Shown: positions 1,432 through 29,342 of the stretch, one piece after another | How positions within the stretch are numbered: position 1 is the stretch's first letter | How the letters are laid out: every line of letters begins with the position of its first letter | Notes under the pieces: model-generated | What the model saw: only the letters and a program-made list of their open reading frames with translations | Told to the model about the DNA's origin: nothing | Database searches by the model: none | Position numbers and translations under genes: made by a program | DNA from: Minisyncoccia bacterium | GTDB lineage: Bacteria; Patescibacteriota; Minisyncoccia; Phycocordibacterales; Phycocordibacteraceae | DNA: 34,573 bases | Direction of reading: 5' to 3' | Assembly: GCA_038212075.1 (NCBI GenBank) | Contig: JBBQUV010000006.1 | Coordinates: 1-34,573 of the forward strand

Positions 1432-1656
1432 TTAGCGCATGTCGAGCGGCTCGATGTACGAGGTGTGAACGGGTGTTGAAATGTCACCGTCGTCGCCTTC
1501 GAACAGCACCTGCTTGTAAGCGACGCCGTCAGCGGTACCTTCGACCATGCCGACAGTGCCGGCCTTGATGGTGCCGCGGCCGTCAGGCAGCTTCACTGGA
1601 ATGTCCTTGGTCGCACGAACAATCGTCTCGGGGTTAAAAGAGCCTCTTCCTGACAT
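1432..1656 (-). CDS. Small hypothetical protein (74 aa), possibly an SH3/KOW-like beta barrel
   Basis: ATG preceded by AAGGGA, upstream TTGACA, own terminator, strongly biased codons (all four Lys = AAG). Pattern VRATKDI..IKAGTVGMV..QVLFE. Confidence 0.65.
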   Translation of the reverse strand: MSGRGSFNPETIVRATKDIPVKLPDGRGTIKAGTVGMVEGTADGVAYKQVLFEGDDGDISTPVHTSYIEPLDMR

Positions 1657-1807
1657 TGGGTAATCCCTTGGTTGTTTCCGTGACTTCACGAGTCACATAT
1701 ACTGTTTTACTCCGAAAGTATAATTTGTCAAATATACTGGATGATAAAACGGAGGTATTTTTGGCAGAAATTGCGATCATTTTGTGATACAATTATGGCA
1801 AGAAACC

Positions 1808-3874
1808 ATGGCGAAAGGCGAGGAAACAAAGGGTAAAAAAGCGTCCTATGACGCCTCTTCCATTACCGTTCTTGAAGGTCTTGAACCGGTGCGAAAGCGT
1901 CCGGGAATGTACATCGGCACCACGGGGCCCGATGGTCTTCACCACCTGATTTGGGAAATTTTTGATAACTCACGCGACGAAGCCATGGGCGGTTTTGCGA
2001 ATGATATTGAAGTGGCGCTTCTTCCGGGCGGGTATGTGCGCGTGGTAGACAACGGCCGTGGTATTCCGGTTGGCATCCACCCAAAGACAAAAATTTCGGC
2101 ACTTGAAATGGTGATGACCACGCTTCACGCCGGTGGTAAATTCGGCGGCGAAGATTCCGGATACAAAGTGTCGGGCGGACTCCACGGCGTGGGTGCATCG
2201 GTGGTGAACGCGCTTTCTACGAACGCCAAAGTGATTGTGCACAAAGACGGTGGGGTGCATATGCAGGAATACAAAATTGGTAAGCCGCTTGGAAAGGTGA
2301 AGCAGATTGGAAAGACAAAACTGAATGGCACCATCACGTACTTCTGTCCGGACACCACCATTTTCACAGCGGGTATTGAATGGAACTGGGACAAGATTGT
2401 GAACCACTTGCGCCAGCAGGCGTACTTGGTGAAGGGAACGCGCATCACGGTGATAGACGCCCGCGAAGAAACAGCCGCAGGCATGGATGACGATTCGTTC
2501 TATTTGCGCGAGCTTAATCTACAGGTGCCGTCGATGGCGTTCTACTTTGAAGGCGGCCTGCGCTCGCTTGTGGCATTTTACAATCAGCACCAAACACCGG
2601 TACACAAAAACATTTTCTACGTTGACCGCGAACAAGATGGCGTTGCGGTGGAGGTGGCGCTTCAGTATGTAGACGACATCACACCGCGTCTGTCTGCATT
2701 TGCAAACAACATCTACAATCCGGAACACGGTACCCACGTGACCGGATTTAAAACAGCACTTACGCGCACACTAAACGCATACGGACGTACCGCGAACATT
2801 TTAAAAGAAAGTGAAGAGAACTTTACCGGTGACGATGCGCTTGAAGGTATCACCGCTGTGGTGTCGGTGAAAATGCCGGAGATTCAGTTTGAAGGACAAA
2901 CAAAAGGAAAGCTTGGAAGTGTGGAAGCTCAGGGTGCTGTGGCAACGGTTTTTGGTACTGCGTTTGCCGCTTTCCTTGAAGAAAATCCAGACGACGCCCG
3001 CGCCATCATAAATAAAGTACTGCTTGCGCTTAAAGCGCGTAAGGCCGCAAAGGCCGCAAAAGACTCTGTGCTCCGTAAGGGCGCTCTAGAGGGCATGACG
3101 CTTCCCGGGAAGCTCGCCGACTGCCAAGTGAAGTCTCCGGAAGAAGCCGAGCTCTTCATTGTGGAGGGAGATTCAGCAGGTGGTTCGGCGAAGACGGGAC
3201 GTGACCGTCGCACGCAAGCTATTCTTCCGCTTCGTGGCAAAATTTTGAACATTGAGCGGGCGCGCCTTGACCGCATGCTTGCGAGCGAGCAGATTCGTAA
3301 TCTTGTGGTTGCGCTTGGCACCGCCATCGGCGACGTGTTCGATCTTTCAAAATTGCGCTATCACAAAATCATCATCGCGACCGACGCCGACGTGGACGGC
3401 GCGCACATCCGTACCCTTTTGCTCACTCTTTTGTATCGCCACTTCCGCGCCATCATTGACGGCGGGTTTATTTACATTGCTCAGCCACCACTCTTTAAGG
3501 TCGCTCAGGGAAAAGATGTGCGCTACGCGTATTCAGACCAAGAGCGCGATGCCGTGCTGAAAGAGATGGGTGTAAAAAGTGGGGAGATTGAAACGGTCGG
3601 AGAAGGTGGCGATGAGGGTGGGGAAGAAGTAGAAGAAGATGTGGCAACAAAATCAAAGAAAGCTCGCGTTCAGCGTTACAAAGGTCTTGGAGAAATGAAT
3701 CCGTCCGAGCTTTGGGAGACAACGATGGATCCGGCTCGTCGCGTGTTGAAACAGGTGACTATTGAAGACGGGCAAGAGGCAGATCGCATCTTTGATATTT
3801 TGATGGGTAGCGATGTTGCAAGCCGTAAGTCATTCATTCAGTCAAACGCGAAACTCGCGAATTTGGATATTTAA
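1808..3874 (+). CDS. gyrB: DNA gyrase subunit B
   Basis: LEGLEPVRKRPGMYIG, LHAGGKFGG, SGGLHGVG, EGDSAGGS, PLRGKILN, TDADVDGAHI, QRYKGLGEMN; extended -10 TGaTACAAT upstream. Confidence 0.97.
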   Translation: MAKGEETKGKKASYDASSITVLEGLEPVRKRPGMYIGTTGPDGLHHLIWEIFDNSRDEAMGGFANDIEVALLPGGYVRVVDNGRGIPVGIHPKTKISALEMVMTTLHAGGKFGGEDSGYKVSGGLHGVGASVVNALSTNAKVIVHKDGGVHMQEYKIGKPLGKVKQIGKTKLNGTITYFCPDTTIFTAGIEWNWDKIVNHLRQQAYLVKGTRITVIDAREETAAGMDDDSFYLRELNLQVPSMAFYFEGGLRSLVAFYNQHQTPVHKNIFYVDREQDGVAVEVALQYVDDITPRLSAFANNIYNPEHGTHVTGFKTALTRTLNAYGRTANILKESEENFTGDDALEGITAVVSVKMPEIQFEGQTKGKLGSVEAQGAVATVFGTAFAAFLEENPDDARAIINKVLLALKARKAAKAAKDSVLRKGALEGMTLPGKLADCQVKSPEEAELFIVEGDSAGGSAKTGRDRRTQAILPLRGKILNIERARLDRMLASEQIRNLVVALGTAIGDVFDLSKLRYHKIIIATDADVDGAHIRTLLLTLLYRHFRAIIDGGFIYIAQPPLFKVAQGKDVRYAYSDQERDAVLKEMGVKSGEIETVGEGGDEGGEEVEEDVATKSKKARVQRYKGLGEMNPSELWETTMDPARRVLKQVTIEDGQEADRIFDILMGSDVASRKSFIQSNAKLANLDI

Positions 3875-3878
3875 AGAG

Positions 3879-3930: not shown

Positions 3931-4680
3931 TTAGTTCGTGACGCTGATGGTTGCGATAGCCTCGTTATCGTTTTCGTTTGATTCAATCACGTCGTGACCG
4001 GAGTCAACGAGAATGTCGATTTCTTGATTGTTTGCAACGCGTACGTCGCGAGCATCAAGGTGAAGGGTGAAGTCAACCCATGCTCCCGGAGGAAGACTTT
4101 CTTGCACGTTTGAGTCAAAGCCATATGTACCGTTTGACTGCGTAGGAAGCGTCATATGGATATTCCATGGACGGGTTACGTTTGTGCCGGCGTTTGTAAC
4201 GCGGTATTGCACCGCGAGCGTTTGTCCGGAGGCAATTGTCCTGCTTTGAACAAACTTACTGTTTGTATCAAGGTAGCCAACAGCGGTTACCGCAACCGTG
4301 AAGTTTGGCAGCCCGTAGAACGTGGTCGTTACAGGCACCTTAATTGGGTATGCGGTGGTGCTTGGAAGACCGGCGCTTGGCGTGGTGTGTACCGGTACGG
4401 TTGCCACTGGTGCTGGTGTGGTGGTCGTGGCTACAGTTGCAGGGGTGGTTGTAGCGGCGGGGAAGGGAAGGTTGGGAACAACCTGAAGGTTGCCATCACC
4501 TTTTCCGTCGGTTGAAAGATACACTGCACCCGCAAGGCGGGAGAGTGCTACGGGTACGTAGCGAGCCGCATAGATAGCGAGCACCATGCCGATAAAGACG
4601 AGTGCGACAAAGCCAACGATGGCTAGGCCGTTCACGGTGGATGTGCGTGGATTGGTGTCGGTAAATGTGGTCTGTTGCAT
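3931..4680 (-). CDS. Membrane-anchored surface protein with Thr/Pro-rich stalk and C-terminal CARDB-like Ig domain
   Basis: N-terminal TM (LAIVGFVALVFIGMVLAIYAA), T/P-rich linker, CARDB-type VTNAG...VDSGHDVIESNENDN. Confidence 0.75.
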   Translation of the reverse strand: MQQTTFTDTNPRTSTVNGLAIVGFVALVFIGMVLAIYAARYVPVALSRLAGAVYLSTDGKGDGNLQVVPNLPFPAATTTPATVATTTTPAPVATVPVHTTPSAGLPSTTAYPIKVPVTTTFYGLPNFTVAVTAVGYLDTNSKFVQSRTIASGQTLAVQYRVTNAGTNVTRPWNIHMTLPTQSNGTYGFDSNVQESLPPGAWVDFTLHLDARDVRVANNQEIDILVDSGHDVIESNENDNEAIATISVTN

Positions 4681-4687
4681 AGACTTA

Positions 4688-4776
4688 TATTTAACATATA
4701 GCTTATTTTTTGTCAACTACCCCCGCTCGCCGCGTTTTTGGGGGGACTTGACAAACTCTTCATAGTAGTGTATTTA
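4688..4776. promoter_or_regulatory. Divergent sigma70-type promoters for the CARDB gene (-) and sortase (+)
   Basis: TTGACA on each strand (4748-4753 on +; 4711-4716 on -), each followed after 17 nt by an AT-rich imperfect -10. Confidence 0.5.
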
Positions 4777-4789
4777 TATAGGGGACTAT

Positions 4790-5491
4790 ATGAATGGTAT
4801 TCACACAGCCGCGCGGCTCATTTGGGCCGTACAAGACGCTTGGAAAAAGCGTTGGTTGTTTCTTATAGCGTTCATATTCGTTTTTTTCATTTCGTTCTGT
4901 GCACTTCTTTCGTTCGACGTTGTGCCGAACACTACGTTCTCGTTTGCGTCTTCGACGCCGGCGCTTGCGGTTGATCGTTCGCCTCTTATTGGGGTGAGCA
5001 CATCCCCACTTTCGCCAAACGTCTTTGACGCGTTTGCGGTTGGTGAAAATCCCGTAAAGGTTGAGATTCCATCACTCAAACTTTCGGCACCGATTGCAAA
5101 CCCAACAACGACGAGTATTCAGGCGTTGAACAACTTGCTTCTTTCGGGAGCCGTTCGCTACCCGACGTCGGCAAAGCTTGGACAAAACGGCAACGTCATT
5201 CTCTTTGGTCACTCAGCAGAGTACTACCCGGTGGTAAACAACATCTGGTACAAAACGTTTGACCACATTGAGAAGCTGAAAGCAGGAGACACTATCATCG
5301 TCTACTCTTCTAGCCGTGCGTATACCTATTCGGTAGACACGGTGGAGAAAAAGGATGCGAGCGCAGACGTCATTCCGCTTTCGGTTGTTGGTGCAAAGCT
5401 TACGCTTTCCACTTGCGATACGTTTGGACAGAAATCGGATCGTTACGTGGTTACGGCGTCACTTGTTGAAAGCCATCTGCTTGGAGCGTAA
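4790..5491 (+). CDS. Sortase
   Basis: N-terminal TM; catalytic triad motifs GNVILFGHS, LTLSTC, downstream R (SDRYVV); typical VEIPSL and LKAGDTIIV segments. Confidence 0.9.
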   Translation: MNGIHTAARLIWAVQDAWKKRWLFLIAFIFVFFISFCALLSFDVVPNTTFSFASSTPALAVDRSPLIGVSTSPLSPNVFDAFAVGENPVKVEIPSLKLSAPIANPTTTSIQALNNLLLSGAVRYPTSAKLGQNGNVILFGHSAEYYPVVNNIWYKTFDHIEKLKAGDTIIVYSSSRAYTYSVDTVEKKDASADVIPLSVVGAKLTLSTCDTFGQKSDRYVVTASLVESHLLGA

Positions 5492-5581: not shown

Positions 5582-6628
5582 ATGAAGAAACTGATCGCAC
5601 TGCTCGCCGCGCTGTCCATCATTTGGACGGCTGGCGTGCCAGCGATTGCTGCACCGCTCGGGAATCCGTTCTATGTGGGGGCAACGTCTCCACAGGAACT
5701 GGGTCGCATTATCAAGTGCGACCTTGATCCCTCGCGCGGCAACAACGTTGATGGAACGAAAATTATCAACGTGAAAGTCTGCGGCAAGGTGGGAGATCGG
5801 GCATTTGCTGCTCCGGTCGACTACCTTGGTATGTTCCAGATCGACGACCCAGATGCACATCTGACGTCGGTTGCCCAAATTCCGGACTATCTCGCGGGAC
5901 TGGCAGAAATGCCGGTACCCACGGGTAAGTACTGGTCGGCGTGCCTCAAACAATCCACTCGGACGGTGTCCGGATGGAAGGCATACCATCAGTGCATTGC
6001 TCGTTCCTTCCACAAGGGCGAGAAGGCCTGGGGAAACAAGGTCACCGGTCGCATCGTCCTTATGGGCGACTGCACCAATCCGGTGAGTGGACCCGAAAAG
6101 CCGGATGACTGCGTGTACATTTACGCGCACATTCCGGCACAGGTCTACAGGCGGAACATTGCCCGAACGGTCACTGGACTGCGTCTTAAGCAGTACGGCC
6201 CCACGGACATTTCGGCAGACGTGTGCACCGGTGTTAAACGCGCTGGTGAACCCGACTACGAGAGCCCGTTTGTGGAAGAGTGTCCGGATCGCGGATGCAA
6301 CTTCTGGGCGATGGACAACTACCTCGGCGAGCATGGCTGGAAGACGGGAAGTTACGAACCTGCCCCCGGCCTGCACATCTTCCGCCTTCCGAGAAAAATG
6401 GCCGACAGGCTACTCGGATACCGGATGGTGTTCTGTCTGGATCTTTCAGACGGGACGCAGACAGAGTACAGCTCCATCGTCACCGCTCGGTTCTATCTTT
6501 CTGCCGGTGGCAGAACGGTAGCAACCATCTATGTTGATGAAACGACTGCAAATGCGGTCGGAACAAAAACGCTGGATGGTACACCAACCGACCTGTGGTG
6601 GCATTGGGCTTCGGAGCCCACGCAGTAA
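5582..6628 (+). CDS. Secreted cysteine-rich hypothetical protein (348 aa)
   Basis: Sec signal peptide MKKLIALLAALSIIWTAGVPAIAA, 10 Cys, SD, own terminator, CTG/ATC/GGC-rich codons. Confidence 0.8.
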   Translation: MKKLIALLAALSIIWTAGVPAIAAPLGNPFYVGATSPQELGRIIKCDLDPSRGNNVDGTKIINVKVCGKVGDRAFAAPVDYLGMFQIDDPDAHLTSVAQIPDYLAGLAEMPVPTGKYWSACLKQSTRTVSGWKAYHQCIARSFHKGEKAWGNKVTGRIVLMGDCTNPVSGPEKPDDCVYIYAHIPAQVYRRNIARTVTGLRLKQYGPTDISADVCTGVKRAGEPDYESPFVEECPDRGCNFWAMDNYLGEHGWKTGSYEPAPGLHIFRLPRKMADRLLGYRMVFCLDLSDGTQTEYSSIVTARFYLSAGGRTVATIYVDETTANAVGTKTLDGTPTDLWWHWASEPTQ

Positions 6629-6752: not shown

Positions 6753-9131
6753 ATGGTAACTATGACTGAACATCTTGCATACGCAAAAGCGCGACCGGTA
6801 CTGACCGGGCTGTTTGCCGTACTTGCCGTACTTCTTGTCGGTATCGCCGCCGCCTTTGTGTTTGGTCTTACGACCCCACCGGCTGCACATGCTGATATTG
6901 GTCCTCCCTGTTGTCTTCCACCACCACCTCCTCCGCCCCCACCACCCCCACCACCACCTCCTCCGCCCCCACCACCCCCAGCGTGTACGCTTTCTGCAAC
7001 ACCAAATACGTTTGGTAGCGCAGGCGGCACAACCACGCTTACGTGGACGAGCATAAACTCGCTCACGGGCACTATTGATAACGGTGTTGGTGCGGTCACG
7101 CCAATTGCTGGTGGTTCAGTTTCTGCAGGTGTTTCCCACACCGCCACATACACGCTTACCGTAACTGGTCCGGGCGGTGTCGTGACCTGTCACACAACAG
7201 TGACTATTACGAATCCACCACCGGCATGTACGCTTACGGCAGATCCCCCAATCACTACGAATGGTCAGTCCACACTTTCGTGGACGACACAAAACGCCAC
7301 GTCATTTGTTATTGACCACACCGTTGGTTCAGTAACTCCTGTCGCAAGTGGTTCAAAACTAGTGACTGGCATTGCCGTCACAACCACCTATACCGGTACC
7401 GCAACGGGTCCTGGTGGCACGGTAACCTGTACGACTATTGTTACCGTTCCTCCGCCAGACGCACCATTCTGTACGCTTAGCGCAAATCCAAAGAGCGTAC
7501 TTTCAGGCGGCTCTTCAACACTTACGTGGACGACCGGTCACAGCGTTTCGTTCTCTATCGACCAAAGTATTGGTGCCCTTACGCCTGTACCCGGTGGAAC
7601 ACATGTAGTGAACAACATTACGGCAACAACCACGTACACGGGTACGGCAACTGCGGCCGATGGAAAAATTGCACACTGTACCGCAGTCGTTACGGTGAAG
7701 CCGGTAACGCTTGTTCCTGTGTGTACGCTTTCCGCGAGCCCAGCTTCGTTTGTTGGAAGTGGAGCACCAGTGCTTACATGGACATCTGCAAACATCACTG
7801 CGCTCACGATTGATCACGCGGTCGGTGCTGTAACGCCTGTTGCCTCTGGTTCAGTAACTGCAGGCACTATCGCGACAACCACAACGTATACCGCAACCGG
7901 TACTGGCCCTTATGGACCAACAACGTGTTCGACGCAGGTAGTAGTGACGCCGGTCTCCAACACACTCGCCTGTACGCTCTCTGCAAATCCAGACTCGTTC
8001 GGATCGACAGGTGGTACGACCGTGCTTTCATGGACAACGCAACACGCTGTTTCGTTCTCTATTGATCAAAGCATTGGTGCGGTAACTCCTGTTGGAAGTG
8101 GCTCAACAAGTACGCCAGTGACTTCAACCAAAACATTCAACGGTATCGCAACTGATGCCGCTGGAAACACTGCACAGTGTCACGTTGAAGTAACGGTTTC
8201 AACCAGTCATGGTCACGGTTGTACCTCGGGCTGTGGAGGTGGCGGACACACGCCGGATATTGGACTTGATTCTGCACCAACGCTTCCACTTGCGTTCGTG
8301 TATCTCTCGCAGATTCCGTATACCGGTCTTGACCTTGGTCCTGTCGGCACGGTTATCTACTGGCTTGCGCTTATTCTTTGGAGTCTTGCGCTCGCGTACC
8401 TGCTTCTTTTCAGGATGATTCCGTATGCACGAAATCGTGCAGTAACTTTCGGTTCGAGTGTTCGCAGTGCGATTAATCACGAAGCTGAAGTAATTGCGCA
8501 CGACTTCCATACCTATCCATCACCTGCGGAATCAACGCACGCCTACTACTCGCAGAATGTAGAACCGATAGAAGTGCCAAACACTGAACCAATTGCTCCG
8601 GAACCATCGCACGGTTATTCAACCTATGACGGATTCCGTTCCTTTGGTCGTGACGCGCTTACGATTGAAGACATTGTAAAAGGTTTGACGCGCGAAACAC
8701 CACGTCCTGCCGCACCTGCACCAATGGAACCAATTATGGTTCCTGCGCCGGTGGCGACAGTGCCTGCTCCCGTATTCGTCTCAACACCAACGCCGTCAGA
8801 CTCGCCACGTGATGTTCGCGGCATTATTGACGCGCTCCTTCATGGAGACAAAGACGCCGTATTCGGCACTCTTCGCAACGTTGTCCGTGGAGGTGGCAAC
8901 GTCGGATACTTCCTTACGGAAGTAGTCTGCGCACTTGACGACTCGTATCGCGCTCGTGTTGATGGTACGCCTGCAGACCCTGAAGTCGCACGCATCACTG
9001 CAAACTGTGATACGCCCGTACTTGAAAAGCTTGTGGGCGCACTTGCAACTGCCGTTGACTCAAGCTACTCACTTGACGTCACCGGTGCGAAGCTTGCGCT
9101 TACGCGTGCGTTCGCGGTTCTCGGAAAATAA
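6753..9131 (+). CDS. Large surface protein, probable sortase substrate: signal peptide, poly-Pro, five Cys-paired Ig-like repeats, IPYTG + TM, long cytoplasmic tail
   Basis: AHA-D cleavage site; five repeats starting CTL(S/T)A..L(T/S)WT and ending in a second Cys; IPYTG at 8313-8327, then a hydrophobic helix and RMIPYARNR. Start at 6753 or 6762. Confidence 0.85.
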   Translation: MVTMTEHLAYAKARPVLTGLFAVLAVLLVGIAAAFVFGLTTPPAAHADIGPPCCLPPPPPPPPPPPPPPPPPPPPPACTLSATPNTFGSAGGTTTLTWTSINSLTGTIDNGVGAVTPIAGGSVSAGVSHTATYTLTVTGPGGVVTCHTTVTITNPPPACTLTADPPITTNGQSTLSWTTQNATSFVIDHTVGSVTPVASGSKLVTGIAVTTTYTGTATGPGGTVTCTTIVTVPPPDAPFCTLSANPKSVLSGGSSTLTWTTGHSVSFSIDQSIGALTPVPGGTHVVNNITATTTYTGTATAADGKIAHCTAVVTVKPVTLVPVCTLSASPASFVGSGAPVLTWTSANITALTIDHAVGAVTPVASGSVTAGTIATTTTYTATGTGPYGPTTCSTQVVVTPVSNTLACTLSANPDSFGSTGGTTVLSWTTQHAVSFSIDQSIGAVTPVGSGSTSTPVTSTKTFNGIATDAAGNTAQCHVEVTVSTSHGHGCTSGCGGGGHTPDIGLDSAPTLPLAFVYLSQIPYTGLDLGPVGTVIYWLALILWSLALAYLLLFRMIPYARNRAVTFGSSVRSAINHEAEVIAHDFHTYPSPAESTHAYYSQNVEPIEVPNTEPIAPEPSHGYSTYDGFRSFGRDALTIEDIVKGLTRETPRPAAPAPMEPIMVPAPVATVPAPVFVSTPTPSDSPRDVRGIIDALLHGDKDAVFGTLRNVVRGGGNVGYFLTEVVCALDDSYRARVDGTPADPEVARITANCDTPVLEKLVGALATAVDSSYSLDVTGAKLALTRAFAVLGK
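6918..6980 (+). repeat. Poly-proline coding tract with exact 30-bp tandem duplication
   Basis: CCACCACCTCCTCCGCCCCCACCACCCCCA at 6921-6950 and 6951-6980; 21 consecutive Pro codons. Confidence 0.95.
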
Positions 9132-9135: not shown

Positions 9136-9179
9136 TAAAACAAAAACCCCGCGGCTTTCGCCGCGGGGTTTTTGTTTTA
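9136..9179. terminator. Bidirectional intrinsic terminator
   Basis: Perfect 20-bp inverted repeat TAAAACAAAAACCCCGCGGC-TTTC-GCCGCGGGGTTTTTGTTTTA between convergent genes. Confidence 0.92.
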
Positions 9180-9959
9180 CTCTGCAACGTCTTCACTTAT
9201 GATGTGCATGGGAAGCGCTATCAAGCGATCAACACGTTCGAACCATGCTCCGCTCCACTCCTCTACGCCAAATTTCAGAACGTTAGGTTGATGCTCTAAG
9301 GTTCCCGCCAGTTTGTCCCACCAGGAGAAAAGCGCTGAATAATTAGAGTTCGCCTCGCTGACTTGTACTGAATGATGCACGTGATGCATTTGAGGTACGA
9401 CGACAATGTATCCAAGCCAGCTGAGCCACATGGGTATGGCCAGGTTACTGTGATGAAACGTTTGCATGATTGCCGCCGCACCGGTGTATACGAGTATCGC
9501 GAGTGGTGAAAGACCGAGCAACACAATAATGGGGAGGTTAAGCAGTGCGCCGACGATAAGCTCAGCGGGGTGGTGTCGGATAGCAGTGGAGGCGTCGACA
9601 TCAACATCAGAGTGATGCACGGCATGTATCGCCCAAAGTACCGGTGCCGCGTGGAATATTCGATGCAACACATATGCCATACCATCAAGCACGATAAAAG
9701 AAACGAAAATCACGATGACAAATGGAAGGTGTATTACGTTGAATACGCCCCAACCATCTCGCTGTGCCAGCAGCGCAATCCCAACTCCAGCGACGGAAAG
9801 AGGGATGGTGCTCACGAGAACGTTCAACACAAATATGCCAAGATTGCTCGTCCAACGTAACAACCGGGGAAGAGAACGCTCTCGTATCGGCCAGATGAGC
9901 TCAAGCGTCGTGAATCCAGTAAGTGCAATTCCTACTGAGACCCAAGACATTAGAATCAT
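9177..9959 (-). CDS. Sterol desaturase / fatty acid hydroxylase superfamily membrane di-iron enzyme
   Basis: His boxes HRIFH, HAVHH, FHHSN, HHVHH; NSNYS..WDKL; several TMs. ATG 9959 overlaps the upstream stop (ATGA). Confidence 0.9.
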   Translation of the reverse strand: MILMSWVSVGIALTGFTTLELIWPIRERSLPRLLRWTSNLGIFVLNVLVSTIPLSVAGVGIALLAQRDGWGVFNVIHLPFVIVIFVSFIVLDGMAYVLHRIFHAAPVLWAIHAVHHSDVDVDASTAIRHHPAELIVGALLNLPIIVLLGLSPLAILVYTGAAAIMQTFHHSNLAIPMWLSWLGYIVVVPQMHHVHHSVQVSEANSNYSALFSWWDKLAGTLEHQPNVLKFGVEEWSGAWFERVDRLIALPMHIISEDVAE

Positions 9960-10276
9960 GTAGGCAGCTGTATCGGAGGAGGGAGGGGGGTGTCGGTGAA
10001 AAACTGTGAGTTGAGGAATAAAAATAGTGCCACTATCAAAACAATTCCACATGCGCAATACCAGATCATCCAGCTCGTGCGTTTGCGAGCATTATCTGAT
10101 ACTCCAGGTCTTAGTGCGGTAAGTGCCCTGAAGATGATATAGGCCACAAGAGCCACTAATACCGTTGCTGTTAGTGGAATGTAATCAGGATAGTCTGGCG
10201 ACTGCTGTGGGTAATGGCCTCCAGAATAATTAATGTCCGTAACCGGTACCATCGCTGACATTGCAATATGTTCCAT
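9956..10276 (-). CDS. Small two-TM membrane protein
   Basis: Two hydrophobic helices; TGgTATTTT 6 nt before ATG; ATGA overlap with the desaturase. Confidence 0.6.
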   Translation of the reverse strand: MEHIAMSAMVPVTDINYSGGHYPQQSPDYPDYIPLTATVLVALVAYIIFRALTALRPGVSDNARKRTSWMIWYCACGIVLIVALFLFLNSQFFTDTPLPPPIQLPT

Positions 10277-12140: not shown

Positions 12141-12163
12141 CGCGAACAGGCGAGTGGTGCTTT

Positions 12164-18802: not shown

Positions 18803-18829
18803 ACGGGCGTAGGGTATAATTTAGAGGTA

Positions 18830-21089: not shown

Positions 21090-21854
21090 ATGAAAGTGCT
21101 ACTTCATGTGAAGGGCGATGATGGCATCGCTCAGATCCTTCAACAAGCAATTCAAAACGACGATCGCGCGGTTACGGTGTCACCGTATATGAGTATGAGT
21201 TCGGGAAACTTCAGTGCGTTTGCGGATATGGTTTCCAACCACGATGTACTCGTGACGCAGGCGGGACGTGCGGCGGGGCAAACATACGATTCTTTGCGCT
21301 CGAATCTGCGCAAACTCCGCGACGCGGGCGTCACTACTAAAATCGTTGTTTTTACCGACGACGATCCGCTTGAGGAAGCCATGCTTCTTGTGGGTGGCGC
21401 CGACTACTGTGTTGGTGAACCCACCATGCAGGCAGAAGAACGTATCTTCCTTATCCGCGCGGCAGTAGACCGTGTTGTCATGCGTCACGGCACGGCATAC
21501 GAAACAGAGGAAAACGAGATACGGATCGGAGGACTGCATCTCAACACCAACACGTGCCTACTTACTGCTGTTTCTCGTGACGCGTTGGTGCGACTCACGG
21601 TAACTGAGACAAAAATCTTAGAAACACTCATGCGCCGACCGTCTGCCGCGTATAGTCGCGATCAACTTTTGAGTGCGGCGTATCCTGATGATGTGTATGT
21701 TGATGACCGCACCATCGACTCGCACATCAAACGCATTCGTCTGAATAAGTTAAGAAAACTTAACGATGGCGCAGATAAATGCATCATGACACTGTACGGT
21801 GTTGGGTATCGCTTCAGTGAAGATGTGGCACGTAAACTGTTTCCTATCGCGTAA
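21090..21854 (+). CDS. Orphan OmpR-family regulator: degenerate receiver + ChvI/BvrR-like winged helix
   Basis: LTVTE, SRDQLLSAAY, VYVDDRTIDSHIKR, TLYGVGYRF; promoter TTGCAT-17-TAGGTT; SD GGGAGG. Confidence 0.88.
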   Translation: MKVLLHVKGDDGIAQILQQAIQNDDRAVTVSPYMSMSSGNFSAFADMVSNHDVLVTQAGRAAGQTYDSLRSNLRKLRDAGVTTKIVVFTDDDPLEEAMLLVGGADYCVGEPTMQAEERIFLIRAAVDRVVMRHGTAYETEENEIRIGGLHLNTNTCLLTAVSRDALVRLTVTETKILETLMRRPSAAYSRDQLLSAAYPDDVYVDDRTIDSHIKRIRLNKLRKLNDGADKCIMTLYGVGYRFSEDVARKLFPIA

Positions 21855-21957: not shown

Positions 21958-22247
21958 GGTCGACGGGGAAAGGGCTTCCCGTACGATTTCGGCAGAAGCC
22001 GAATGCATCAGCCCCAATCAGCAGGTGGAGGTTTTCCATGTTGAAAACGATTACGTTTGCGCCATGTCTCGCTCGTGAAGGGCCAGCGCGTCGCAATGCG
22101 ACTCCCATGTTTCAACCTCTCTGTCTGAAAGGACGGTGATCATCATCTGGCGTGATAAGCGGATTACAAATCCGATTTCCTAACAGGTAAGCGCCGGCCA
22201 GGTTTGGCCTAACTTCGGGGGTGCCGCTTTGCGGGCCCCCTCTTTTT
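21958..22247 (+). ncRNA. Putative ~290-nt structured RNA (may contain a 33-codon sORF at 22038-22139)
   Basis: Extended -10 TGaTACGCT (21944-21952), at least seven short hairpins, terminal GGGGG..CCCCC hairpin + TCTTTTT. Confidence 0.55.
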
Positions 22248-23767: not shown

Positions 23768-25741
23768 CTACTTCGTTTCTACAAGTCCGAAATCAAGTTC
23801 TTTTTCAAATGTTCGGGCGGCCATAAGTTTGACACGAATGGGGTCGCCAAGGGCGTATTCTTTTTTTGTACGTTCACCCACAATGCGGTAGCGTTTTTCG
23901 TCGTGAACAAAATAGTCGTCACCAAGGTCGCGGATACGAATCATCCCTTCAGCATGGGTTTCTTTCAGCTCTACATAAATCCCACGGTCGGATACGCCGG
24001 AAATGACCGCATCGTATTCGCTTCCAATTTTGTCCGCCATAAATTCTACAATCTTTAGCTTCACCGAGTCGCGTTCGGCTTCTGTTGCCGCTACTTCGCG
24101 CTCGCTTGAATGAAGGGCGAGGGATTCAAGTTCTTCCAATTCTTTCTTTGGAACGGTTTGCTGGTGCTCCCAATGCTTCACCATGCGGTGTACGAGCAAG
24201 TCAGGATAACGGCGGATAGGAGAGGTAAAGTGTGTGTAGTACTCAAATGCCAAGCCAAAGTGACCGACGTTTTTGGTGGAATACACCGCCTTTGCCATAG
24301 AACGGAGTGTTGCTGTTTTAATCAAATATTCTTCGGGCGTTCCTTTTGTTTGTTCAAGTAGTTTGTTCAAGTCGGTACCTTTTACTTTTCCGCCGCTCGT
24401 TTTAAGGTCGTAGCCCATGACGCGCAAAAACTGCGAAAGGTTTTCAATACGTTCTGCATCAGGCACGTCGTGCACGCGATAGATAGCGCCGTAGGTAAAT
24501 TTGTGGGCTTTGGCGAGTTTGGAAAGGTGTTCTGCCACTGCTTCGTTTGCGAGCAACATAAAGTCTTCAATCAGAAGGTTGGTTTCTTTGCGTTCTTTCA
24601 GATGTATCGCGACCGGTTTACCGGTCGCGTCAATTTCCACCTTCACTTCCGGTGTATCAAATTCAATAGCACCCTTGGCAACGCGTCGCGCACGGATTTT
24701 CTTTGCAAGCGTGGCGATGGTGGAAAGCTCGTCGAACAATATGCCGCTTTTATTGTCGAGCACACCCTGTGCTTCTTCATACGTAAATCGTTTTGCAGAG
24801 TGAATGACTGTTTCGCCAAACCACTTCTCTTGCACGTTTGCGTCCGCGTCAAGCACGAATACCGCCGACACCGACAAGCGATCAACGTCTTGATTCAGCG
24901 AACACAAGTCGTTGGAAAGCACGTGCGGAAGCATGGGAATCGTTCGATCAACAAGATACACCGATGTGGCGCGGTTTCTGCCTTCCGTATCAATAGCTGA
25001 ACCGGTTTTTACAAAGTACGAAACGTCGGCAATGTGCACGCCCACTTCAATGTTTCCATCCGGAAGTTTCCGCACCGAAAGTGCATCGTCGAAGTCTTTT
25101 GCGTCTGCTGGGTCTATGGTGAATGTGGGAGTGGTTCGAAAGTCACGGCGGCCGGCGGTACCGGCTTCAATAAGTCCCTTTCCGGTTTCTTCAAGCTTCT
25201 TTGCTTCGGCTACTACGCCGGGAGGGAAGTCGGGGTGAAAACCCTGCGCAAGTACCAAAGCGCGCATTTCAACGTCGTGTACACCTGCTTCACCGATGTC
25301 TTCGGTTACTGTGGCGCGCGGAATTTCTTCGCCTTCTTTCCATCCCGTAAATTTCACCACCACTTTGTGACCCATCGGAAATTCAAAATCGTCGGCGCTG
25401 TCTTTCTCACAAATCATAAACGGCACATACATACGTTTGCTGTCCGGAAGAAGAATGATGTTACCTCGCTCGGTCTTACTGAGGGTGCCCACGAATGTTT
25501 CGGTGGCACGCGAGATTATTTCCACTACCTTGCCTGCCTTGCGACGGTCTACCATTCCAGCGGGCTGTACTTTTACGACATCGCGCGGAAGGGCAGTGCC
25601 AAGCCATTCGCGAGGAATCAAAAGGTCGTTTTCTTTATCAGGGCGTGCTTTAGGGTTGTTCTTTGGGTCAGGGATAGAGAAAAACCCCTTACCGGTGCGG
25701 GTTATGGTTATTGGTCCTTCGTACACTTGGGGGTTAGACAC
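23768..25741 (-). CDS. rnr: Ribonuclease R / RNB-family exoribonuclease
   Basis: TIDPADAKDFDDALS, VHIADVS, TSVYLVDR, HFGLA..YTHFTSPIRRYPDL, C-terminal S1 domain; GTG start. Confidence 0.95.
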   Translation of the reverse strand: MSNPQVYEGPITITRTGKGFFSIPDPKNNPKARPDKENDLLIPREWLGTALPRDVVKVQPAGMVDRRKAGKVVEIISRATETFVGTLSKTERGNIILLPDSKRMYVPFMICEKDSADDFEFPMGHKVVVKFTGWKEGEEIPRATVTEDIGEAGVHDVEMRALVLAQGFHPDFPPGVVAEAKKLEETGKGLIEAGTAGRRDFRTTPTFTIDPADAKDFDDALSVRKLPDGNIEVGVHIADVSYFVKTGSAIDTEGRNRATSVYLVDRTIPMLPHVLSNDLCSLNQDVDRLSVSAVFVLDADANVQEKWFGETVIHSAKRFTYEEAQGVLDNKSGILFDELSTIATLAKKIRARRVAKGAIEFDTPEVKVEIDATGKPVAIHLKERKETNLLIEDFMLLANEAVAEHLSKLAKAHKFTYGAIYRVHDVPDAERIENLSQFLRVMGYDLKTSGGKVKGTDLNKLLEQTKGTPEEYLIKTATLRSMAKAVYSTKNVGHFGLAFEYYTHFTSPIRRYPDLLVHRMVKHWEHQQTVPKKELEELESLALHSSEREVAATEAERDSVKLKIVEFMADKIGSEYDAVISGVSDRGIYVELKETHAEGMIRIRDLGDDYFVHDEKRYRIVGERTKKEYALGDPIRVKLMAARTFEKELDFGLVETK

Positions 25742-25768
25742 GTTGTAAGCATTTTACCGCATACTTCC

Positions 25769-25797
25769 TTGACCCGCTACCCTCCGTCTGGTATTCT
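25769..25797 (+). promoter_or_regulatory. Sigma70 promoter of rpsP
   Basis: TTGACC-17 nt-TATTCT with extended TG, 9 nt before ATG. Confidence 0.7.
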
Positions 25798-25806
25798 CCC
25801 TCCACT

Positions 25807-26265
25807 ATGTTGATGATCCGATTCCAGCGCATTGGCCGTAAAAACGACCCGGCGTTTCGTATTCTTGTGCTTGAAAAGACCGCCAGCCCAAAGGCGGGAA
25901 CCTATACCGACCTCCTTGGTACGTACAACCCAAAGACCAAGGCGCTCACTGTCGCCGCCGACCGTCTTAAAGTGTGGATGGAAAAGGGTGCACAGCTTTC
26001 TCCATCTCTTATGAACCTTCTTATCGCGAAGAAGATTATTGAAGGAACAAAGACACAGGTTATTTCAACGAAGAATCTCGAAAAGAATAAGGCAAAGAAA
26101 GAAGAAGAGGCAGCCGCCGCCGCAGTGGCCGCCGCTGAACCAGCACCCGTTGTTGAAGCAGAAGCTCCGGCTGAAGAGGTTGTTCCTGCAGAAGCAGAAG
26201 TTCCCGCACCACCAGCTGAAGAAACGCCTGTTGTTGAGGAAGCTCCGGCTGAAGTCGTGGCGTAA
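25807..26265 (+). CDS. rpsP: 30S ribosomal protein S16 with acidic Ala/Glu/Pro tail
   Basis: MIRFQRIGRKNDPAFRI, LGTYNP, WMEKGAQLS. Confidence 0.95.
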   Translation: MLMIRFQRIGRKNDPAFRILVLEKTASPKAGTYTDLLGTYNPKTKALTVAADRLKVWMEKGAQLSPSLMNLLIAKKIIEGTKTQVISTKNLEKNKAKKEEEAAAAAVAAAEPAPVVEAEAPAEEVVPAEAEVPAPPAEETPVVEEAPAEVVA

Positions 26266-27877: not shown

Positions 27878-27909
27878 AAGAAAAACAGGCGGCCTTGGGG
27901 AAGGCCGCC
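27878..27909 (-). terminator. Intrinsic terminator of the ParB-like gene
   Basis: GGCGGCCTT-GGGG-AAGGCCGCC with TGTTTTTCTTTT on the minus strand. Confidence 0.8.
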
Positions 27910-27926
27910 CATCTTCGTAGTTCCTG

Positions 27927-29342
27927 CTACTTGTTGTTCATCACGAAGGTTGCTACTTCTTCGCGTGTTGGCAAGAAATCAGGTTTCGGTTTCTTGTTCT
28001 GTTGAAACGCAAGAAGCCCGTGCGCCCAAAGATGTATATATTTGTCGAGAGACACTGGGCTCGTCACGACACGGGAACCATTGTCGTGACTTACGGTGAT
28101 CTCTCGCGTCACCATCCACCGAGGTGCATCGTCCGGCAATTTTCTTTTTACCGGTGGCTCGGGTCGCTTCACTGTGACCGAATCTGGAAGTGGCACGTGC
28201 TGTCGTACCGGAGCAGGCCTGAGGAACTCCGGTTTAGACGCAGGCGCAACTGCAGACAATTTCGGTTGTTGAGTCTTCTCCCGATCGCGGGCGAATCGCT
28301 CAGCAAAGCTTAGTCCGGATGGCGGGGGAGGTTTTTGAACAGGCGGGGCAGGCGCAGTCGTAATCACCTTAGCCGTTGCTGAGGCGTCACCACGAATGAT
28401 GGCTTCACATTCAACGACCATTGCACGAGTCTGACCAAGCACTGTCAAAGCACTCGCGATCACCTTTGCATGGAGGCGTAGATTGGCCGCCATGCTTGGC
28501 TCACGCAGTAGACTTCGCAAGTCAGTGGCTGTGTGGACTAACATTTGAGAAAGTCTGTCCACACGCTTCGCTTTACGCGCTGGTTCATCGCCAACGCGCT
28601 CACGAATATAGGTGCCAGTCTGCTTTGCAAGCTCAACAGCTTCTCTGCGAAGACCGTTGAGTGTCACCTTCTTTTCGCGGAAACGTTGTACCAGACGTCC
28701 CTGCAACGTCGGCTCCAACTTGGATACTTGGATAGCGGCGGTGACTGGTAGGCGTTGATCTTTCTTCGTGATACGGGGATCAATCAAGGGTTTAAATTGC
28801 GCGTCCAGCTTTTGCAAGCTATGCAATTCATACGCCCAGTGAACCGTGATGTTGTAGAGCTTTGCTATCACCGGCATAGGCATGCTTAGCTGGTTATGCA
28901 GACGTTCAATCGCATTTGAAATTTCCATATGCGTGTGGCCGGCGCGATTGAAATTCGCAATAGATGCGATTACAAACGGTGCCGCCTCATCGTCGATTTC
29001 CACTTCAAGTGCGCGGTATGTCGGCACTGCCTTCAACACCACTGAACGCCACCGACGTTCACCATCAAGGAGTTCGCGATCGCGATGGTCCTGTTCGGGA
29101 ACAGATCGGATAATACCGGGCATAATTTGCCCAACCTTAACGATTGAGTCGGCAAGCTCTTCGAGATCTGCTTGGTCAAAGTATTCGCGGGGCTGGCCAA
29201 CCACTGGTCGGATACGTGCAGGATTTATGTCCACGAGTTTGGCGCTTGCCATCGCCCGCTTTACCCGATCAAGAATGATTTCCCAGCGCGGCGCCTCAGT
29301 GCTGAGTTTCGCCACGTTATTTGCTGTTGTCGCACTAGTCAT
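27927..29342 (-). CDS. Orphan ParB-like protein with long C-terminal extension
   Basis: QPREYFD..LEELADSI..GQIMP, LLDGERRWR, HTH-like region; SD AGAGGTG 6 nt before ATG 29342; TGaTACAGT promoter. Confidence 0.85.
   Translation of the reverse strand: MTSATTANNVAKLSTEAPRWEIILDRVKRAMASAKLVDINPARIRPVVGQPREYFDQADLEELADSIVKVGQIMPGIIRSVPEQDHRDRELLDGERRWRSVVLKAVPTYRALEVEIDDEAAPFVIASIANFNRAGHTHMEISNAIERLHNQLSMPMPVIAKLYNITVHWAYELHSLQKLDAQFKPLIDPRITKKDQRLPVTAAIQVSKLEPTLQGRLVQRFREKKVTLNGLRREAVELAKQTGTYIRERVGDEPARKAKRVDRLSQMLVHTATDLRSLLREPSMAANLRLHAKVIASALTVLGQTRAMVVECEAIIRGDASATAKVITTAPAPPVQKPPPPSGLSFAERFARDREKTQQPKLSAVAPASKPEFLRPAPVRQHVPLPDSVTVKRPEPPVKRKLPDDAPRWMVTREITVSHDNGSRVVTSPVSLDKYIHLWAHGLLAFQQNKKPKPDFLPTREEVATFVMNNK

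Follow-up and report, generated by a model that had tools for sequence, protein, structure and literature searches.

How does a very small bacterial genome mark the beginnings of its genes, and why do two kinds of start stand side by side on one contig? The window (the whole stretch of DNA analysed, 34,573 nucleotides) is the entire contig JBBQUV010000006.1 of a 0.69-Mb Paceibacteria genome (Kaiserbacteria-like, CPR), labelled G000 in comparisons. An initial annotation described core genes with a -10-like hexamer immediately before the start and, between them, orphan genes with a Shine-Dalgarno (SD) sequence, and proposed a dispersed second expression class. This division holds: leaderless-type and SD-led starts split by gene class across the genome, in a relative and at the family level. 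The mismatch of interest in this ultra-small bacterium is that housekeeping genes have leaderless-type starts, and yet some variable genes, a minority, retain an SD whose match its own rRNA has lost.

Gene calls and start positions were taken from our own caller, in which the choice of start was blind to the SD. Whether a gene was shared was decided by a tblastn match in a single relative. Coding scores were obtained from a self-trained coding model and are given per 100 codons. Replication was performed in the relative G305, a single contig of 742,728 bp rated 100% complete. G000 and G305 each contain a single 16S match.

Two classes of gene start

The core genes of the window with a nearby -10 element are as follows.
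192..1346, minus strand: pheS (Pfam tRNA-synt_2d, FDX-ACB); TGcTATATT 8 nt ahead of the ATG at 1346; leaderless-type
10343..12088, minus strand: thrS (Pfam); TGcTAAAAT 8 nt ahead of the ATG (start 12088); leaderless-type
12521..16272: dnaE (minus) and rnhB (plus), a divergent leaderless-type pair (Pfam)
16736..21025, plus strand: rpmF, nusB-NUDIX, rnc and smc, core genes (Pfam); -10 boxes 6-9 nt ahead of rpmF, rnc and smc
23768..26265: rnr (minus) and rpsP (plus), divergent and leaderless-type (Pfam); TAAAAT and TGgTATTCT, each 9 nt ahead of the start

A TANNNT hexamer was present at the spacing originally given in all nine core genes named (pheS 8, thrS 8, dnaE 6, rnhB 6, rnc 6, smc 9, rnr 9, rpsP 9 and rpmF 6 nt, the last for start 16736), and most of the nine have the extended -10 TGn as well. 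A single palindromic -10 (AGTATACT, 15677-15684) within a 20-bp spacer is common to dnaE and rnhB, whose divergent arrangement is kept in 4 relatives with spacers of 21-23 bp. Counts against control ATGs place the pattern above chance genome-wide. An extended -10 (TGnTAnnnT) begins 12-15 nt upstream of 226 of 795 called genes versus 18 of 2622 control ATGs (0.7%), and TANNNT starts 12 nt upstream of 15% of 569 longest-ORF starts versus 1% of 2704 internal ATGs. The motif learned upstream of starts was TGnTAtAcT, in which the position two bases ahead of the hexamer is G at 0.78. Leaderless-called starts make up 170 of 448 shared genes (38%) versus 56 of 347 non-shared genes (16%; p 6e-12). Such promoters would place the mRNA 5' end at or within ~3 nt of the ATG, and the resulting leaderless mRNAs would presumably use 70S-type initiation. 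Other core genes may be served by coupling, trailing the preceding gene within 10 nt.

Taken over all genes together, SD 4-mers showed no excess over background; they precede 6% of leaderless genes and 7% of those inside operons, versus 16% of control ATGs. A peak of canonical SD motifs at 9-14 nt upstream is seen only for genes that are non-shared and richer in GC (GC 0.53-0.57 versus 0.491 for the core); these number 36 of 795 called genes (4.5%), 5 of them in the window. SD use is not equally common among core genes (equal use would, according to the initial annotation, have spoken against its reading); it is concentrated in non-shared genes, both for SD 5-mers (37/347 non-shared versus 9/448 shared genes, p 3e-7) and for GGAG/GAGG at 9-14 nt (41 matches among 345 versus 6 among 447). 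The split is stronger in G305 (100/472 non-shared versus 9/410 shared genes, p 4e-20; peak at 10-12 nt), where about 12% of genes are SD-led. The G305 SD consensus, AAAGGAGG, has a spacer of 6-8 nt in 79 of 91 leaders and is the exact complement of the canonical 16S tail, flanks included. SD-led genes of G305 have lower coding potential (14.3 versus 19.3), and 77% of them are compositionally "typical".

The SD-led set contains ordinary enzymes, membrane and secreted proteins and lipoprotein-like N-termini, with no enrichment of secretion signals. It includes additional copies of TrpRS, DHFR and an S49 peptidase alongside native leaderless versions, and some members are grouped in multi-gene islands. 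The suggestion that these are end-protected monocistronic mRNAs finds no support as a class property, given that SD leaders are not more folded genome-wide (mean z -0.24 versus -0.36). Local hairpins do exist in the window, but none of six orphan leaders is more stably folded than its shuffled versions (z -0.3 to -1.8).

SD-led orphans and a resident surface-locus gene

The remaining features of the window under discussion are listed below.
1432..1656, minus strand: orphan 1, 74 aa; SD-like AAGGGA; weak -10 only, 74 nt upstream
3931..5491: conserved surface locus (Pfam), with a CARDB protein (minus, 3931-4680) and a sortase (plus, 4790-5491)
5582..6628, plus strand: orphan 2, secreted Cys-rich protein of 348 aa; SD AGAGGAG 9 nt ahead of the ATG
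6753..9131, plus strand: repeat-rich surface protein that closes the locus; translation with repeated modules and a poly-Pro tract; syntenic in relatives; no Pfam match
9177..10058, minus strand: fatty-acid hydroxylase family gene (Pfam FA_hydroxylase); coding score 0.2; compositional outlier in a variable slot
12115..12505, minus strand: orphan 3 cassette; 101-aa ORF at 12164-12469; leader of ~20 nt with GAGGG; terminator 12115-12141
16343..16703, plus strand: orphan 4, 106-aa ORF of doubtful coding status; GGGAG 7 nt ahead of the ATG; terminator 16676-16703
21090..21854, plus strand: orphan 5, OmpR-type winged-helix protein (Pfam Trans_reg_C only); GGGAGG 6 nt ahead of the ATG
22027..22139, plus strand: sORF of 33 codons; GGAGG 6 nt upstream; coordinates hand-counted
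27881..29385, minus strand: orphan 7 cassette; 471-aa ParB_N-domain protein at 27927-29342; SD AGAGGTG; terminator 27881-27916

All seven SD-like strings reported for the orphans were found in place, and neither an integrase nor a transposase domain was detected in the 29 window ORFs scanned, as had been noted. The claim that every orphan brings its own promoter and terminator stands in part. Good extended -10 elements precede 12164-12469 (TGgTATAAT at 12497-12505, 27 nt ahead of the ATG) and 27927-29342 (TGaTACAGT, 39 nt ahead of the ATG), and weak ones precede 1432-1656 and 16343-16663, but none scoring >3.5 occurs within 150 nt upstream of 5582-6628 or 21090-21854. Terminators are clear for orphans 3, 4 and 7. 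Odd composition was likewise borne out by low coding scores in five orphans (1432-1689, 5.1; 5582-6628, 8.7; 12164-12484, 2.7; 16343-16663, -11; 27927-29351, 7.8; core genes, 18-26), but not in 21090-21854, which is normal at 15.6.

Single insertion, also part of the original description, fits five orphans (1, 3, 4, 5 and 7), none of which occupies the syntenic slot in those relatives that cover it. Orphans 1 and 3 had no match in 120 genus genomes, and each returned only itself from a search of 5.8 billion proteins. An exhaustive search with orphan 3 gave a single match, a highly repetitive protein of 4488 aa that we judged uninformative. Orphan 4 had no match in the relatives' syntenic regions; nor did the gene at 9177..10058, whose slot in relatives measures only 24-391 nt. 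Orphan 5 has no recognisable receiver domain by Pfam, and its best genus matches are ordinary response regulators at 29-35% identity. Around the sORF, the 120 genus genomes show no DNA conservation across 21900-22320, and no Rfam family matched. Orphan 7 has close homologs in 3 of 120 genus genomes, its homologs in relatives are mostly SD-led, and its plasmid and phage matches reach at most ~30% identity over ≤59% of the query. Independent recent acquisition would agree with this patchy distribution and odd composition, but no close donor was found, and the idea is wrong for 5582-6628.

We rejected 5582-6628 as an insert on the basis of its neighbourhood: gene order in the sortase locus is the same in 29 of 29 relatives' loci, with the sortase directly upstream in 27. 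The gene has a 7-bp GC hairpin upstream (5546-5562) and a signal peptide visible in its translation. Among the genus genomes, 40 of 120 have a homolog, compared with only 1 of 200 in the remainder of the order, and the 5.8-billion-protein search returned 7 other proteins. It is a resident, fast-evolving gene of a conserved locus. Its homologs have diverged to 24-42% identity and retain the SD in 22-25 of 29 cases versus 8% of control ATGs. As the family keeps both its locus and its SD, the SD is under selection in a genus whose 16S lacks the anti-SD. This best case of selection concerns a signal-peptide protein of a sortase and surface-protein locus, which suggests that it serves the bacterium itself.

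Beyond this family, an SD is present in 4 of 4 homologs of a 621-aa family at 30-77% identity; the flanks are also conserved, a pattern compatible with either inheritance or repeated import of one island. Gap ORFs in relatives are SD-led in 35 of 121 cases versus 11%. Only 4 of the 36 SD-led G000 genes have a G305 homolog, none of them SD-led there, and all nine SD-led G305 genes with a G000 homolog face a non-SD start in G000. Since SD-led homologs across the two genomes are so few, the strong evidence for SD conservation comes from one large and one small family.

A missing anti-SD and the possible readers of the SD

The 16S tail of G000 reads GGATCATATCCGAA. The initial annotation had asked whether this tail retains the anti-SD, and the answer is sharper than expected: CCUCC is absent from the only 16S gene of G000 and from those of 23 other relatives. 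CCTCC is missing from the 16S tail of all 22 genomes read from the genus and order, and likewise in G290 and G305. No gene class shows any pairing to the genome's own 16S tail. A search of the genome for uL1 found none; an S1 homologue with 4 domains is present. Anti-SD loss in this group is already published (Tsurumaki 2022, PMC9297842). Without an anti-SD, canonical pairing cannot serve the SD class in this cell.

We hold with middling confidence that this clade of anti-SD-less Parcubacteria has a lineage-wide split of gene-start architecture by gene class. In addition to the leaderless-type and coupled core, a minority of genes, presumably leadered, carry a canonical AAAGGAGG-type SD 6-8 nt ahead of the start. 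Most are genes that evolve fast or are specific to a strain and that sit in variable slots between operons; several islands of more than one gene and a single resident gene of the surface locus belong here too. The class would be fed in part by gene import, as suggested by its unusual GC content and codon use, its patchy distribution and the extra TrpRS, DHFR and S49 copies, and at least one resident family keeps its SD by purifying selection. The leadered mRNAs would be translated in the bacterium itself, bound by 30S subunits (the S1 homologue being present), and the SD would contribute by a route other than canonical pairing to the 16S tail.

That the SD consensus mirrors the canonical tail exactly is predicted by import from, or reading by, ribosomes that bear an anti-SD, and not by a new reader. 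Import could be the whole story, the SDs being functionless leftovers of recent arrivals that decay before or with gene loss while translation is SD-blind. Variable slots, islands, duplicated enzymes, atypical GC and codon use and the low coding potential seen again in G305 suit such an account, which we consider possible but somewhat unlikely. It is at odds with the syntenic, diverged and still SD-led orphan 2 family, which was not found outside the lineage, with the lack of a close donor for orphans 1, 3 and 7, and with the compositionally "typical" majority of SD-led genes in G305. A concealed canonical anti-SD (an unassembled second rRNA gene, a separate 3' fragment or adaptor RNA, or a 16S end altered after transcription) would select, from the usual place on the 30S, just the sequence and 6-8-nt spacing observed. 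We think it improbable, because G305 is complete in one contig with one 16S match and G000 also has one, no CCTCC was found within 1.5 kb downstream of 16S in either, scans for intergenic RNAs bearing CCTCC or able to pair with the 16S tail gave none common to the two, and an anti-SD-like string near 22135 is not conserved.

Two further readings are more remote. The boldest suggestion of the initial annotation, that ribosomes of the epibiont's host cell read the SD-led mRNAs or genes, would account for a canonical, conserved SD beside a ribosome that lacks the anti-SD and for GC-richer codon use unlike the core. It is very improbable, since it would need a transfer route and the set consists of ordinary enzymes and membrane or secreted proteins unenriched for secretion signals, the cell's own sortase-locus protein among them. 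Chance or artefact, whether through starts picked to fit motifs, GC-rich DNA yielding GGAG or a mixed bin, is hardly credible. The starts first chosen did favour 1656 over 1689, 12469 over 12484 and 29342 over 29351, the SD-like 4-mer background reaches 16% at control ATGs, and the bin of one relative, G259, is contaminated. However, SD-blind start choice still gave a sharp positional peak in one gene class only, shifted-window and control-ATG SD rates were just 4-11%, and SD-led genes lie in among core genes on one contig, also in the single-contig genome. Class-specific peaks, SD retention in the orphan 2 family and replication in G305 have largely refuted it.

Comparison with known systems

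Phage morons and small genomic islets sit between conserved genes as self-contained units of promoter, gene and terminator, and they turn over fast. Orphans 3 and 7 resemble them as units of this kind, although the window has no phage context or mobility gene and orphan 7 has no phage or plasmid relative above ~30% identity.

In Bacteroidia, the anti-SD is sequestered by proteins. Accounts of Flavobacterium johnsoniae describe SD-blind initiation in which most genes lack an SD and other mRNA features decide (PMC7797042, PMC6847099); Bacteroidia ribosomes keep the anti-SD, and the abstract of PMC7797042 mentions its sequestration. Here, the anti-SD sequence itself is lost, and leaderless promoters are not known to be the main alternative in Bacteroidia.

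Organisms of GeneMarkS-2 group C retain the anti-SD. As outlined by Lomsadze et al. (2018, PMC6028130), this group (Actinobacteria, Deinococcus-Thermus) mixes leaderless and SD starts, with leaderless first genes whose start lies 6-8 nt from a Pribnow box, 25-50% of transcripts predicted to be leaderless, and an RBS expected for operon-internal and leadered first genes (~60% of M. tuberculosis operons). In terms of that outline, G000 likewise has a Pribnow box close to leaderless-type starts and a second, SD-type start model in the same genome. It differs in that its 16S lacks the anti-SD, its operon-internal genes lack SDs (7%, with a background of 16%), and only accessory or fast-evolving genes have the SD.

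Prokaryotes without an anti-SD have a 13-base tail lacking CCUCCU and mostly SD-less genes, and the general finding of Amin et al. (2018, PMC6107228; citing Lim et al. 2012) is that SD motifs are absent where the anti-SD is absent. In contrast to that pattern, a canonical SD with canonical spacing is found in 4.5% of genes in G000 and about 12% in G305. A further related system is the Parcubacteria subgroup whose 16S 3' end lacks CCTCCT and whose uL1 is missing; formation of SD helices is considered unlikely there, according to Tsurumaki et al. (2022, RNA 28:1041, PMC9297842). The word "leaderless" does not occur in that paper, and its passages considered here do not mention SD-bearing genes. 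The present genome shares the loss of CCTCCT and of uL1 and departs from that description in having leaderless-type starts together with a minority of SD-bearing genes.

Gene order and predicted leaderless starts of core genes

The window is contig C6 in its entirety, from genome G000 (691,241 bp in 10 contigs, 49% GC), and its GyrB has its nearest named relatives in Paceibacterota, Kaiserbacteria and Parcubacteria MAGs. Pfam assigned names to nearly all of the large ORFs: pheS, gyrB, a CARDB protein, a sortase, a fatty-acid hydroxylase, thrS, dnaE, rnhB, rpmF, a nusB-NUDIX gene, rnc, smc, gdh, rnr, rpsP, a KH protein, trmD, rpoB and rpoC. An Rfam scan of the window returned no family at gathering score. 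The order of these genes is kept in ten relatives of the same genus. GC content spreads from 49% (G000) through 55% (relative G305) to ~60% (relative G042) within this one "genus", and DnaE identity to G000 is ~80% in G042 and 66-81% in the other genus members searched, in a search without G305. Three features of the conserved part of the window are described here:

6753-9131 (+): surface protein without a Pfam match, with a run of ~24 prolines, several Thr/Gly-rich repeat modules of ~90 aa, each with an initial Cys, and a membrane segment at the C-terminus
15671-15690: 20-bp spacer over which dnaE and rnhB diverge
17125-18084 (+): NusB and a NUDIX hydrolase domain fused in a single ORF, kept in relatives at 70-82% identity

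The initial annotation had placed a -10-like hexamer 6-9 nt before the start of nine named core genes, and TANNNT was present at that distance in all nine, mostly preceded by TGn. For the genome as a whole, genes came from an in-house caller based on ORFs and a Markov model, which yielded 574 compositionally typical genes plus 224 gap ORFs; no Shine-Dalgarno (SD) term was used in start choice, and gene calls and starts are our own. Of 569 longest-ORF starts, 15% have a TANNNT that begins 12 nt upstream and another 17% one that begins at 13-15 nt, as compared to about 1% at the same positions before 2704 internal ATGs. The motif learned from G000 starts is an extended -10, TGnTAtAcT. When a leaderless-type start was taken as an extended -10 (TGnTAnnnT) beginning 12-15 nt before the start codon, 226 of 795 genes were predicted to be leaderless vs 18 of 2622 control ATGs (0.7%), and the same call was made for 155 of the 332 typical genes with an upstream gap of at least 26 nt.

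Among same-strand neighbours (n = 439), 72 pairs overlap, 36 with a 4-nt overlap, and a further 108 are spaced by 0-10 nt. Since neighbours overlap or adjoin within 10 nt, initiation inside operons is likely to occur by coupling. SD-like 4-mers are rarer than background before operon-internal genes (7% vs 16%) and stand at background level at longest-ORF starts in G000 overall. Core genes would accordingly fall into two groups in the scheme that we propose, leaderless or coupled. The spacer between dnaE and rnhB is a compact example, in which one palindromic AGTATACT (core 15677-15684) gives a TATACT -10 six nt before both ATGs, so that the spacer is predicted to form a single two-way leaderless promoter. 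This arrangement, at 21-23 bp, is also found in the relatives G056, G048, G017 and G042.

SD-led genes in two genomes

The SD-led genes and related features of the window are as follows:

1432-1656: orphan 1
5582-6628: ORPH2, an SD-led gene for a Cys-rich signal-peptide protein, beside the sortase
9177-10058 (-): fatty-acid hydroxylase family gene
12164-12469: orphan 3
16343-16663: orphan 4
21090-21854: orphan 5, a lone, divergent OmpR-type protein
22027-22139: sORF, a 33-codon frame
27927-29342: orphan 7, a ParB_N protein
29340-29385 (-): predicted leader of orphan 7, in which a hairpin of -11.3 kcal/mol joins the SD, AGAGGUG, to a CCUUCU further upstream, with a stability that shuffled sequence matches

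The proposed division between core genes and SD-led orphan cassettes was borne out by classifying genes genome-wide, which found SD motifs to be rare in core or shared genes, with a positional peak only in non-shared genes. The shared and non-shared sets of G000 were defined by comparison with one relative, G042, whose genome was rebuilt from sequence stretches. Leaderless starts were called for 170 of 448 shared and 56 of 347 non-shared genes, while SD 5-mers at 4-12 nt preceded 9 of 448 shared vs 37 of 347 non-shared genes. Among genes of at least 100 aa that are neither leaderless nor operon-internal, an SD was found in 20% of 111 non-shared vs 4% of 123 shared genes (shifted-window controls, 4-5%). 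The peak of GGAG/GAGG 9-14 nt upstream occurs in non-shared genes only (41 vs 6 matches).

G000 has 36 SD-led genes, five of which are in the window, and their GC content (0.53-0.57) is higher than that of the core (0.491 +/- 0.027). Pfam matches were obtained for 8 of 20 SD-led genes, with 12 unmatched; they comprise a class II aaRS, a methyltransferase, an SPFH protein, a CsgG-like lipoprotein, an AdoMet decarboxylase, a CarS-like protein and one weak S-AdoMet lyase. N-terminal hydrophobic segments are not enriched in the class (34% vs 27%, p 0.42).

The individual traits attributed to the orphans fared unevenly. All seven SD-like strings were located where they had been described. A departure from core composition held with one exception, coding scores per 100 codons being 18-26 for core genes and -11 to 8.7 for the orphans, with orphan 5 at 15.6. 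A promoter of its own had been ascribed to each orphan, and a good extended -10 at leader distance was found for orphans 3 and 7 and not for the others; a clear terminator follows orphans 3, 4 and 7 only. Hairpinned leaders were not supported as a class trait, as orphan leaders fold no better than shuffled sequence.

The pattern was replicated in G305, a single contig of 742,728 bp (54.7% GC) with one 16S gene whose tail lacks the anti-SD as in G000; its genes were called with a model trained on G305 itself. GGAG/GAGG was found 9-14 nt upstream of 100 of the 472 G305 genes not shared with G000 (shifted control, 21) and of 9 of the 410 shared genes (control, 16; p = 4e-20), with a sharp peak at 10-12 nt in the non-shared set. 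Shared and non-shared genes alike show the -10 peak at 12-15 nt. The SD consensus of G305 leaders is AAAGGAGG, with a spacer of 6-8 nt in 79 of 91; the SD-led class thus carries a purine-rich motif of GGAGG type at the distance from the start, 5-10 nt, that is usual in canonical initiation. G042 was also considered as a replicate genome and rejected: its -10 peak was seen, but its SD profile was too noisy, the genes being poorly called by the G000-trained model because its GC content is ~0.60.

Of the SD-led G305 genes with at least 100 aa (n = 78), 77% are compositionally "typical" and 12% are shared with G000; coding potential is lower in SD-led genes (14.3 vs 19.3). Among them are an additional TrpRS paralog, DHFR, NAD synthase, a protein resembling glutathionylspermidine synthase, and an S49 peptidase. 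Of 18 distant relatives of this peptidase in other genus members, 9 have leaderless-type starts and 2 are SD-led. Class I W/Y synthetase genes number three in G305 vs two in G000, and the extra TrpRS-like copy (G305 C1:633454-636851, stretch L317) is SD-led and lies within a run of SD-led genes. The SD-led TrpRS fails as proof of translation by the cell's own ribosomes because G305 has three PF00579 genes and the SD-led one is the extra copy. Homologs in G305 exist for 4 of the 36 SD-led genes of G000, and none of the four is SD-led there.

Variable slots and conserved SD-led families

The orphans had been described as inserted singly between core genes. Orphans 1, 3, 4, 5 and 7 and the sORF indeed have no counterpart among the syntenic regions of ten relatives, not every one of which spans the full window. 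In relatives, these inter-operon slots measure anything between 18 and 3896 nt, and the ORFs within them are unrelated and frequently have SDs; over all gaps, an SD precedes 35 of the 121 ORFs that are 80 aa or longer, vs 11.1% of control ATGs. For orphans 1 and 3, 120 genus genomes yielded no homolog, and a search of 5.8 billion proteins recovered only the query proteins themselves. The one match of orphan 3 in an exhaustive search, a 4488-aa protein full of repeats and bearing a ferlin-like domain, was judged uninformative. Orphan 7 has three closer relatives in the 120 genus genomes, and its plasmid and phage matches do not exceed ~30% identity and cover 59% of the query or less. Its homologs are SD-led in 5-8 of 10 cases vs 10% of controls, a set that includes one homolog from the contaminated bin G259. 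This 1.5-Mb bin (stretches L279, L282 and L283) holds three 16S genes with canonical anti-SD tails and a fourth 16S copy; it is therefore a mixed bin, and its ParB-like locus is not to be counted as evidence.

The fatty-acid hydroxylase gene, which was absent from the list of orphans in the initial annotation, scores near zero for coding potential on the G000 model and has no counterpart in the ten relatives, where its slot measures only 24-391 nt. It is likely to be an import. Both marks of recent transfer, atypical composition and patchy distribution among close relatives, were found. No close donor was seen for orphans 1, 3 and 7, and the relatives of ORPH2 are internal to the lineage; the sparse taxonomy of the collections may hide a donor. 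No Pfam domain of a mobility gene lies near the orphans in the window, and no tRNA genes were found in it either.

ORPH2 had been counted among the single inserts, and here that description does not stand. The locus order CARDB - sortase - ORPH2 - surface protein is conserved in 29 of 29 relatives' loci, with the sortase directly upstream in 27, and this synteny indicates that the gene was inherited, not inserted. Homologs occur in 40 of 120 genus genomes and in 1 of 200 genomes from the rest of the order; a large protein database holds only 7 other proteins, one labelled Minisyncoccia, and a protein atlas search gave no usable match. The homologs have diverged to 24-42% identity. An SD 4-mer is located 8-16 nt upstream in 22 of 29 by a nearest-ATG rule and in 25 of 29 by a first-ATG rule, as compared to 8% of control ATGs in the same loci (p 1e-18 to 1e-23), and only 4 of 28 neighbouring sortase starts are of SD type. 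An SD-led ORPH2 copy and an anti-SD-less 16S occur together in G000 and in the relatives G020 and G290. A 621-aa family of G305 behaves similarly, being SD-led in all four homologs at 30-77% identity with leaders that have otherwise diverged; its flanks are collinear in the four genomes, which fits inheritance or repeated import alike. The motif is thus kept among diverged orthologs in both families.

16S tails, candidate SD readers and known systems

E. coli-type 16S tails read GGATCACCTCCTTA. The single 16S gene of G000 ends GGATCATATCCGAA, which settles in the negative whether the anti-SD is retained in this genome. CCTCC is absent from the 16S tail in 22 genomes covering the genus and nine other families of the order, and also in G290 and G305 (G000 and 23 relatives in all). 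A displaced anti-SD downstream of 16S was rejected on the absence of CCTCC within ~1.5 kb in G000 and five relatives and within 1600 nt in G305; scattered CCTCC matches downstream in other relatives have no common context.

Other candidate readers of the SD were also considered. The hairpin that follows 16S in the ITS was rejected: it has a pyrimidine-rich 5' arm in G000, but the stem is variable, and G020 and the relative G006 show no such pyrimidine bias in it. A co-evolved variant SD was discarded, as no gene class pairs better than controls with the 16S tail of the genome itself, and the CsrA family, considered as an SD-region binder, was not found in G000. Scans for a possible adaptor or second anti-SD RNA returned only reverse complements of SDs and unrelated matches. 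Two local features were recorded:

~22135-22150 (-): match at 14 of 15 positions with the canonical 16S 3' tail (one extra G), on the strand opposite the end of the sORF
L001 2950-2995 (G000 16S 3' end and spacer): mini-hairpin of 3-4 bp after helix 45, in the same place in relatives

The former match is probably due to chance, because its region shows no DNA conservation in 120 genus genomes. The arms of the mini-hairpin seem by eye to covary across the order (UCC..GGA, UCA..UGA, UUC..GAA), the MAFFT alignment of the tails being not structure-aware and placing these arms out of register; a GNRA-looped hairpin of variable stem comes next. If the mini-hairpin is real, the residual UCC of the old anti-SD would be paired. 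Ribosomal protein uL1 (PF00687) was not found in G000, which is rated 100% complete, and 14 of 14 control genomes were positive. G000 has a four-domain S1 protein and a marginal bS21.

Two readings of these data can be weighed. In the scheme that we prefer, the accessory pool would be partly imported, as suggested by its composition, by the islands and by extra SD-led copies beside native leaderless versions. If true, the SD marks genes that arrive from ordinary bacteria faster than the SD decays, and it would offer an easily read sequence tag for genes imported into CPR genomes. That the consensus matches the canonical tail exactly speaks for anti-SD-bearing ribosomes as the force that may have shaped it, namely those of donors or, far less likely, of a host cell. 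Set against this, the syntenic and lineage-restricted ORPH2 argues for selection within the anti-SD-less lineage, and at least one resident family would, in the same preferred scheme, owe its SD to selection. That the AAAGGAGG SD, 6-8 nt from the start, is under purifying selection in a lineage whose only 16S lacks the anti-SD is a tentative claim that we consider rather doubtful. In that case the SD would have a reader distinct from the canonical 16S tail; candidates would be an unrecognised RNA or protein element of reduced ribosomes and, far less probably, the ribosomes of a host cell. Such selection, if real, would imply an undescribed form of SD-mRNA recognition, with bearing on start-site choice and on the role of the SD beyond base-pairing, and it would give CPR bacteria a translation route for accessory genes with its own control. 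On the practical side, start sites in such genomes will be misplaced by gene-finding software that takes an SD for granted.

Genomes that mix leaderless and SD-led starts are already known, as is anti-SD loss in some Parcubacteria. Both marks of the Parcubacteria subgroup of Tsurumaki 2022, a 16S tail without CCUCC and the absence of uL1, are found here. The loss of the anti-SD in this uL1-less subgroup is already in print (PMC9297842), and the word "leaderless" does not occur in that article. Our literature search returned no paper tying leaderless or SD-led accessory genes to Parcubacteria; two papers combine "leaderless" with a CPR term, one in its reference list only (PMC6851277) and one only in connection with YchF (PMC12641178). 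As in group C of GeneMarkS-2 (PMC6028130), in the excerpted description of that group, a Pribnow box lies 6-10 nt before many first-gene starts. Unlike that group as so described, operon-internal genes here are without an SD, SDs are confined to non-shared genes, and the anti-SD is also missing. Canonical SD initiation relies on pairing with an anti-SD in the 16S 3' tail of the cell itself, and these genomes have no such sequence. In the accepted picture the SD is gone where the anti-SD is gone, whereas here a canonical SD and an anti-SD-less rRNA coexist. The general finding, as given in excerpts of PMC6107228, is that anti-SD-less organisms are without SDs; the canonical, correctly spaced SD minority of the anti-SD-less G000 and G305 contradicts it, and a minority class of this kind could have escaped a method that seeks the dominant motif.
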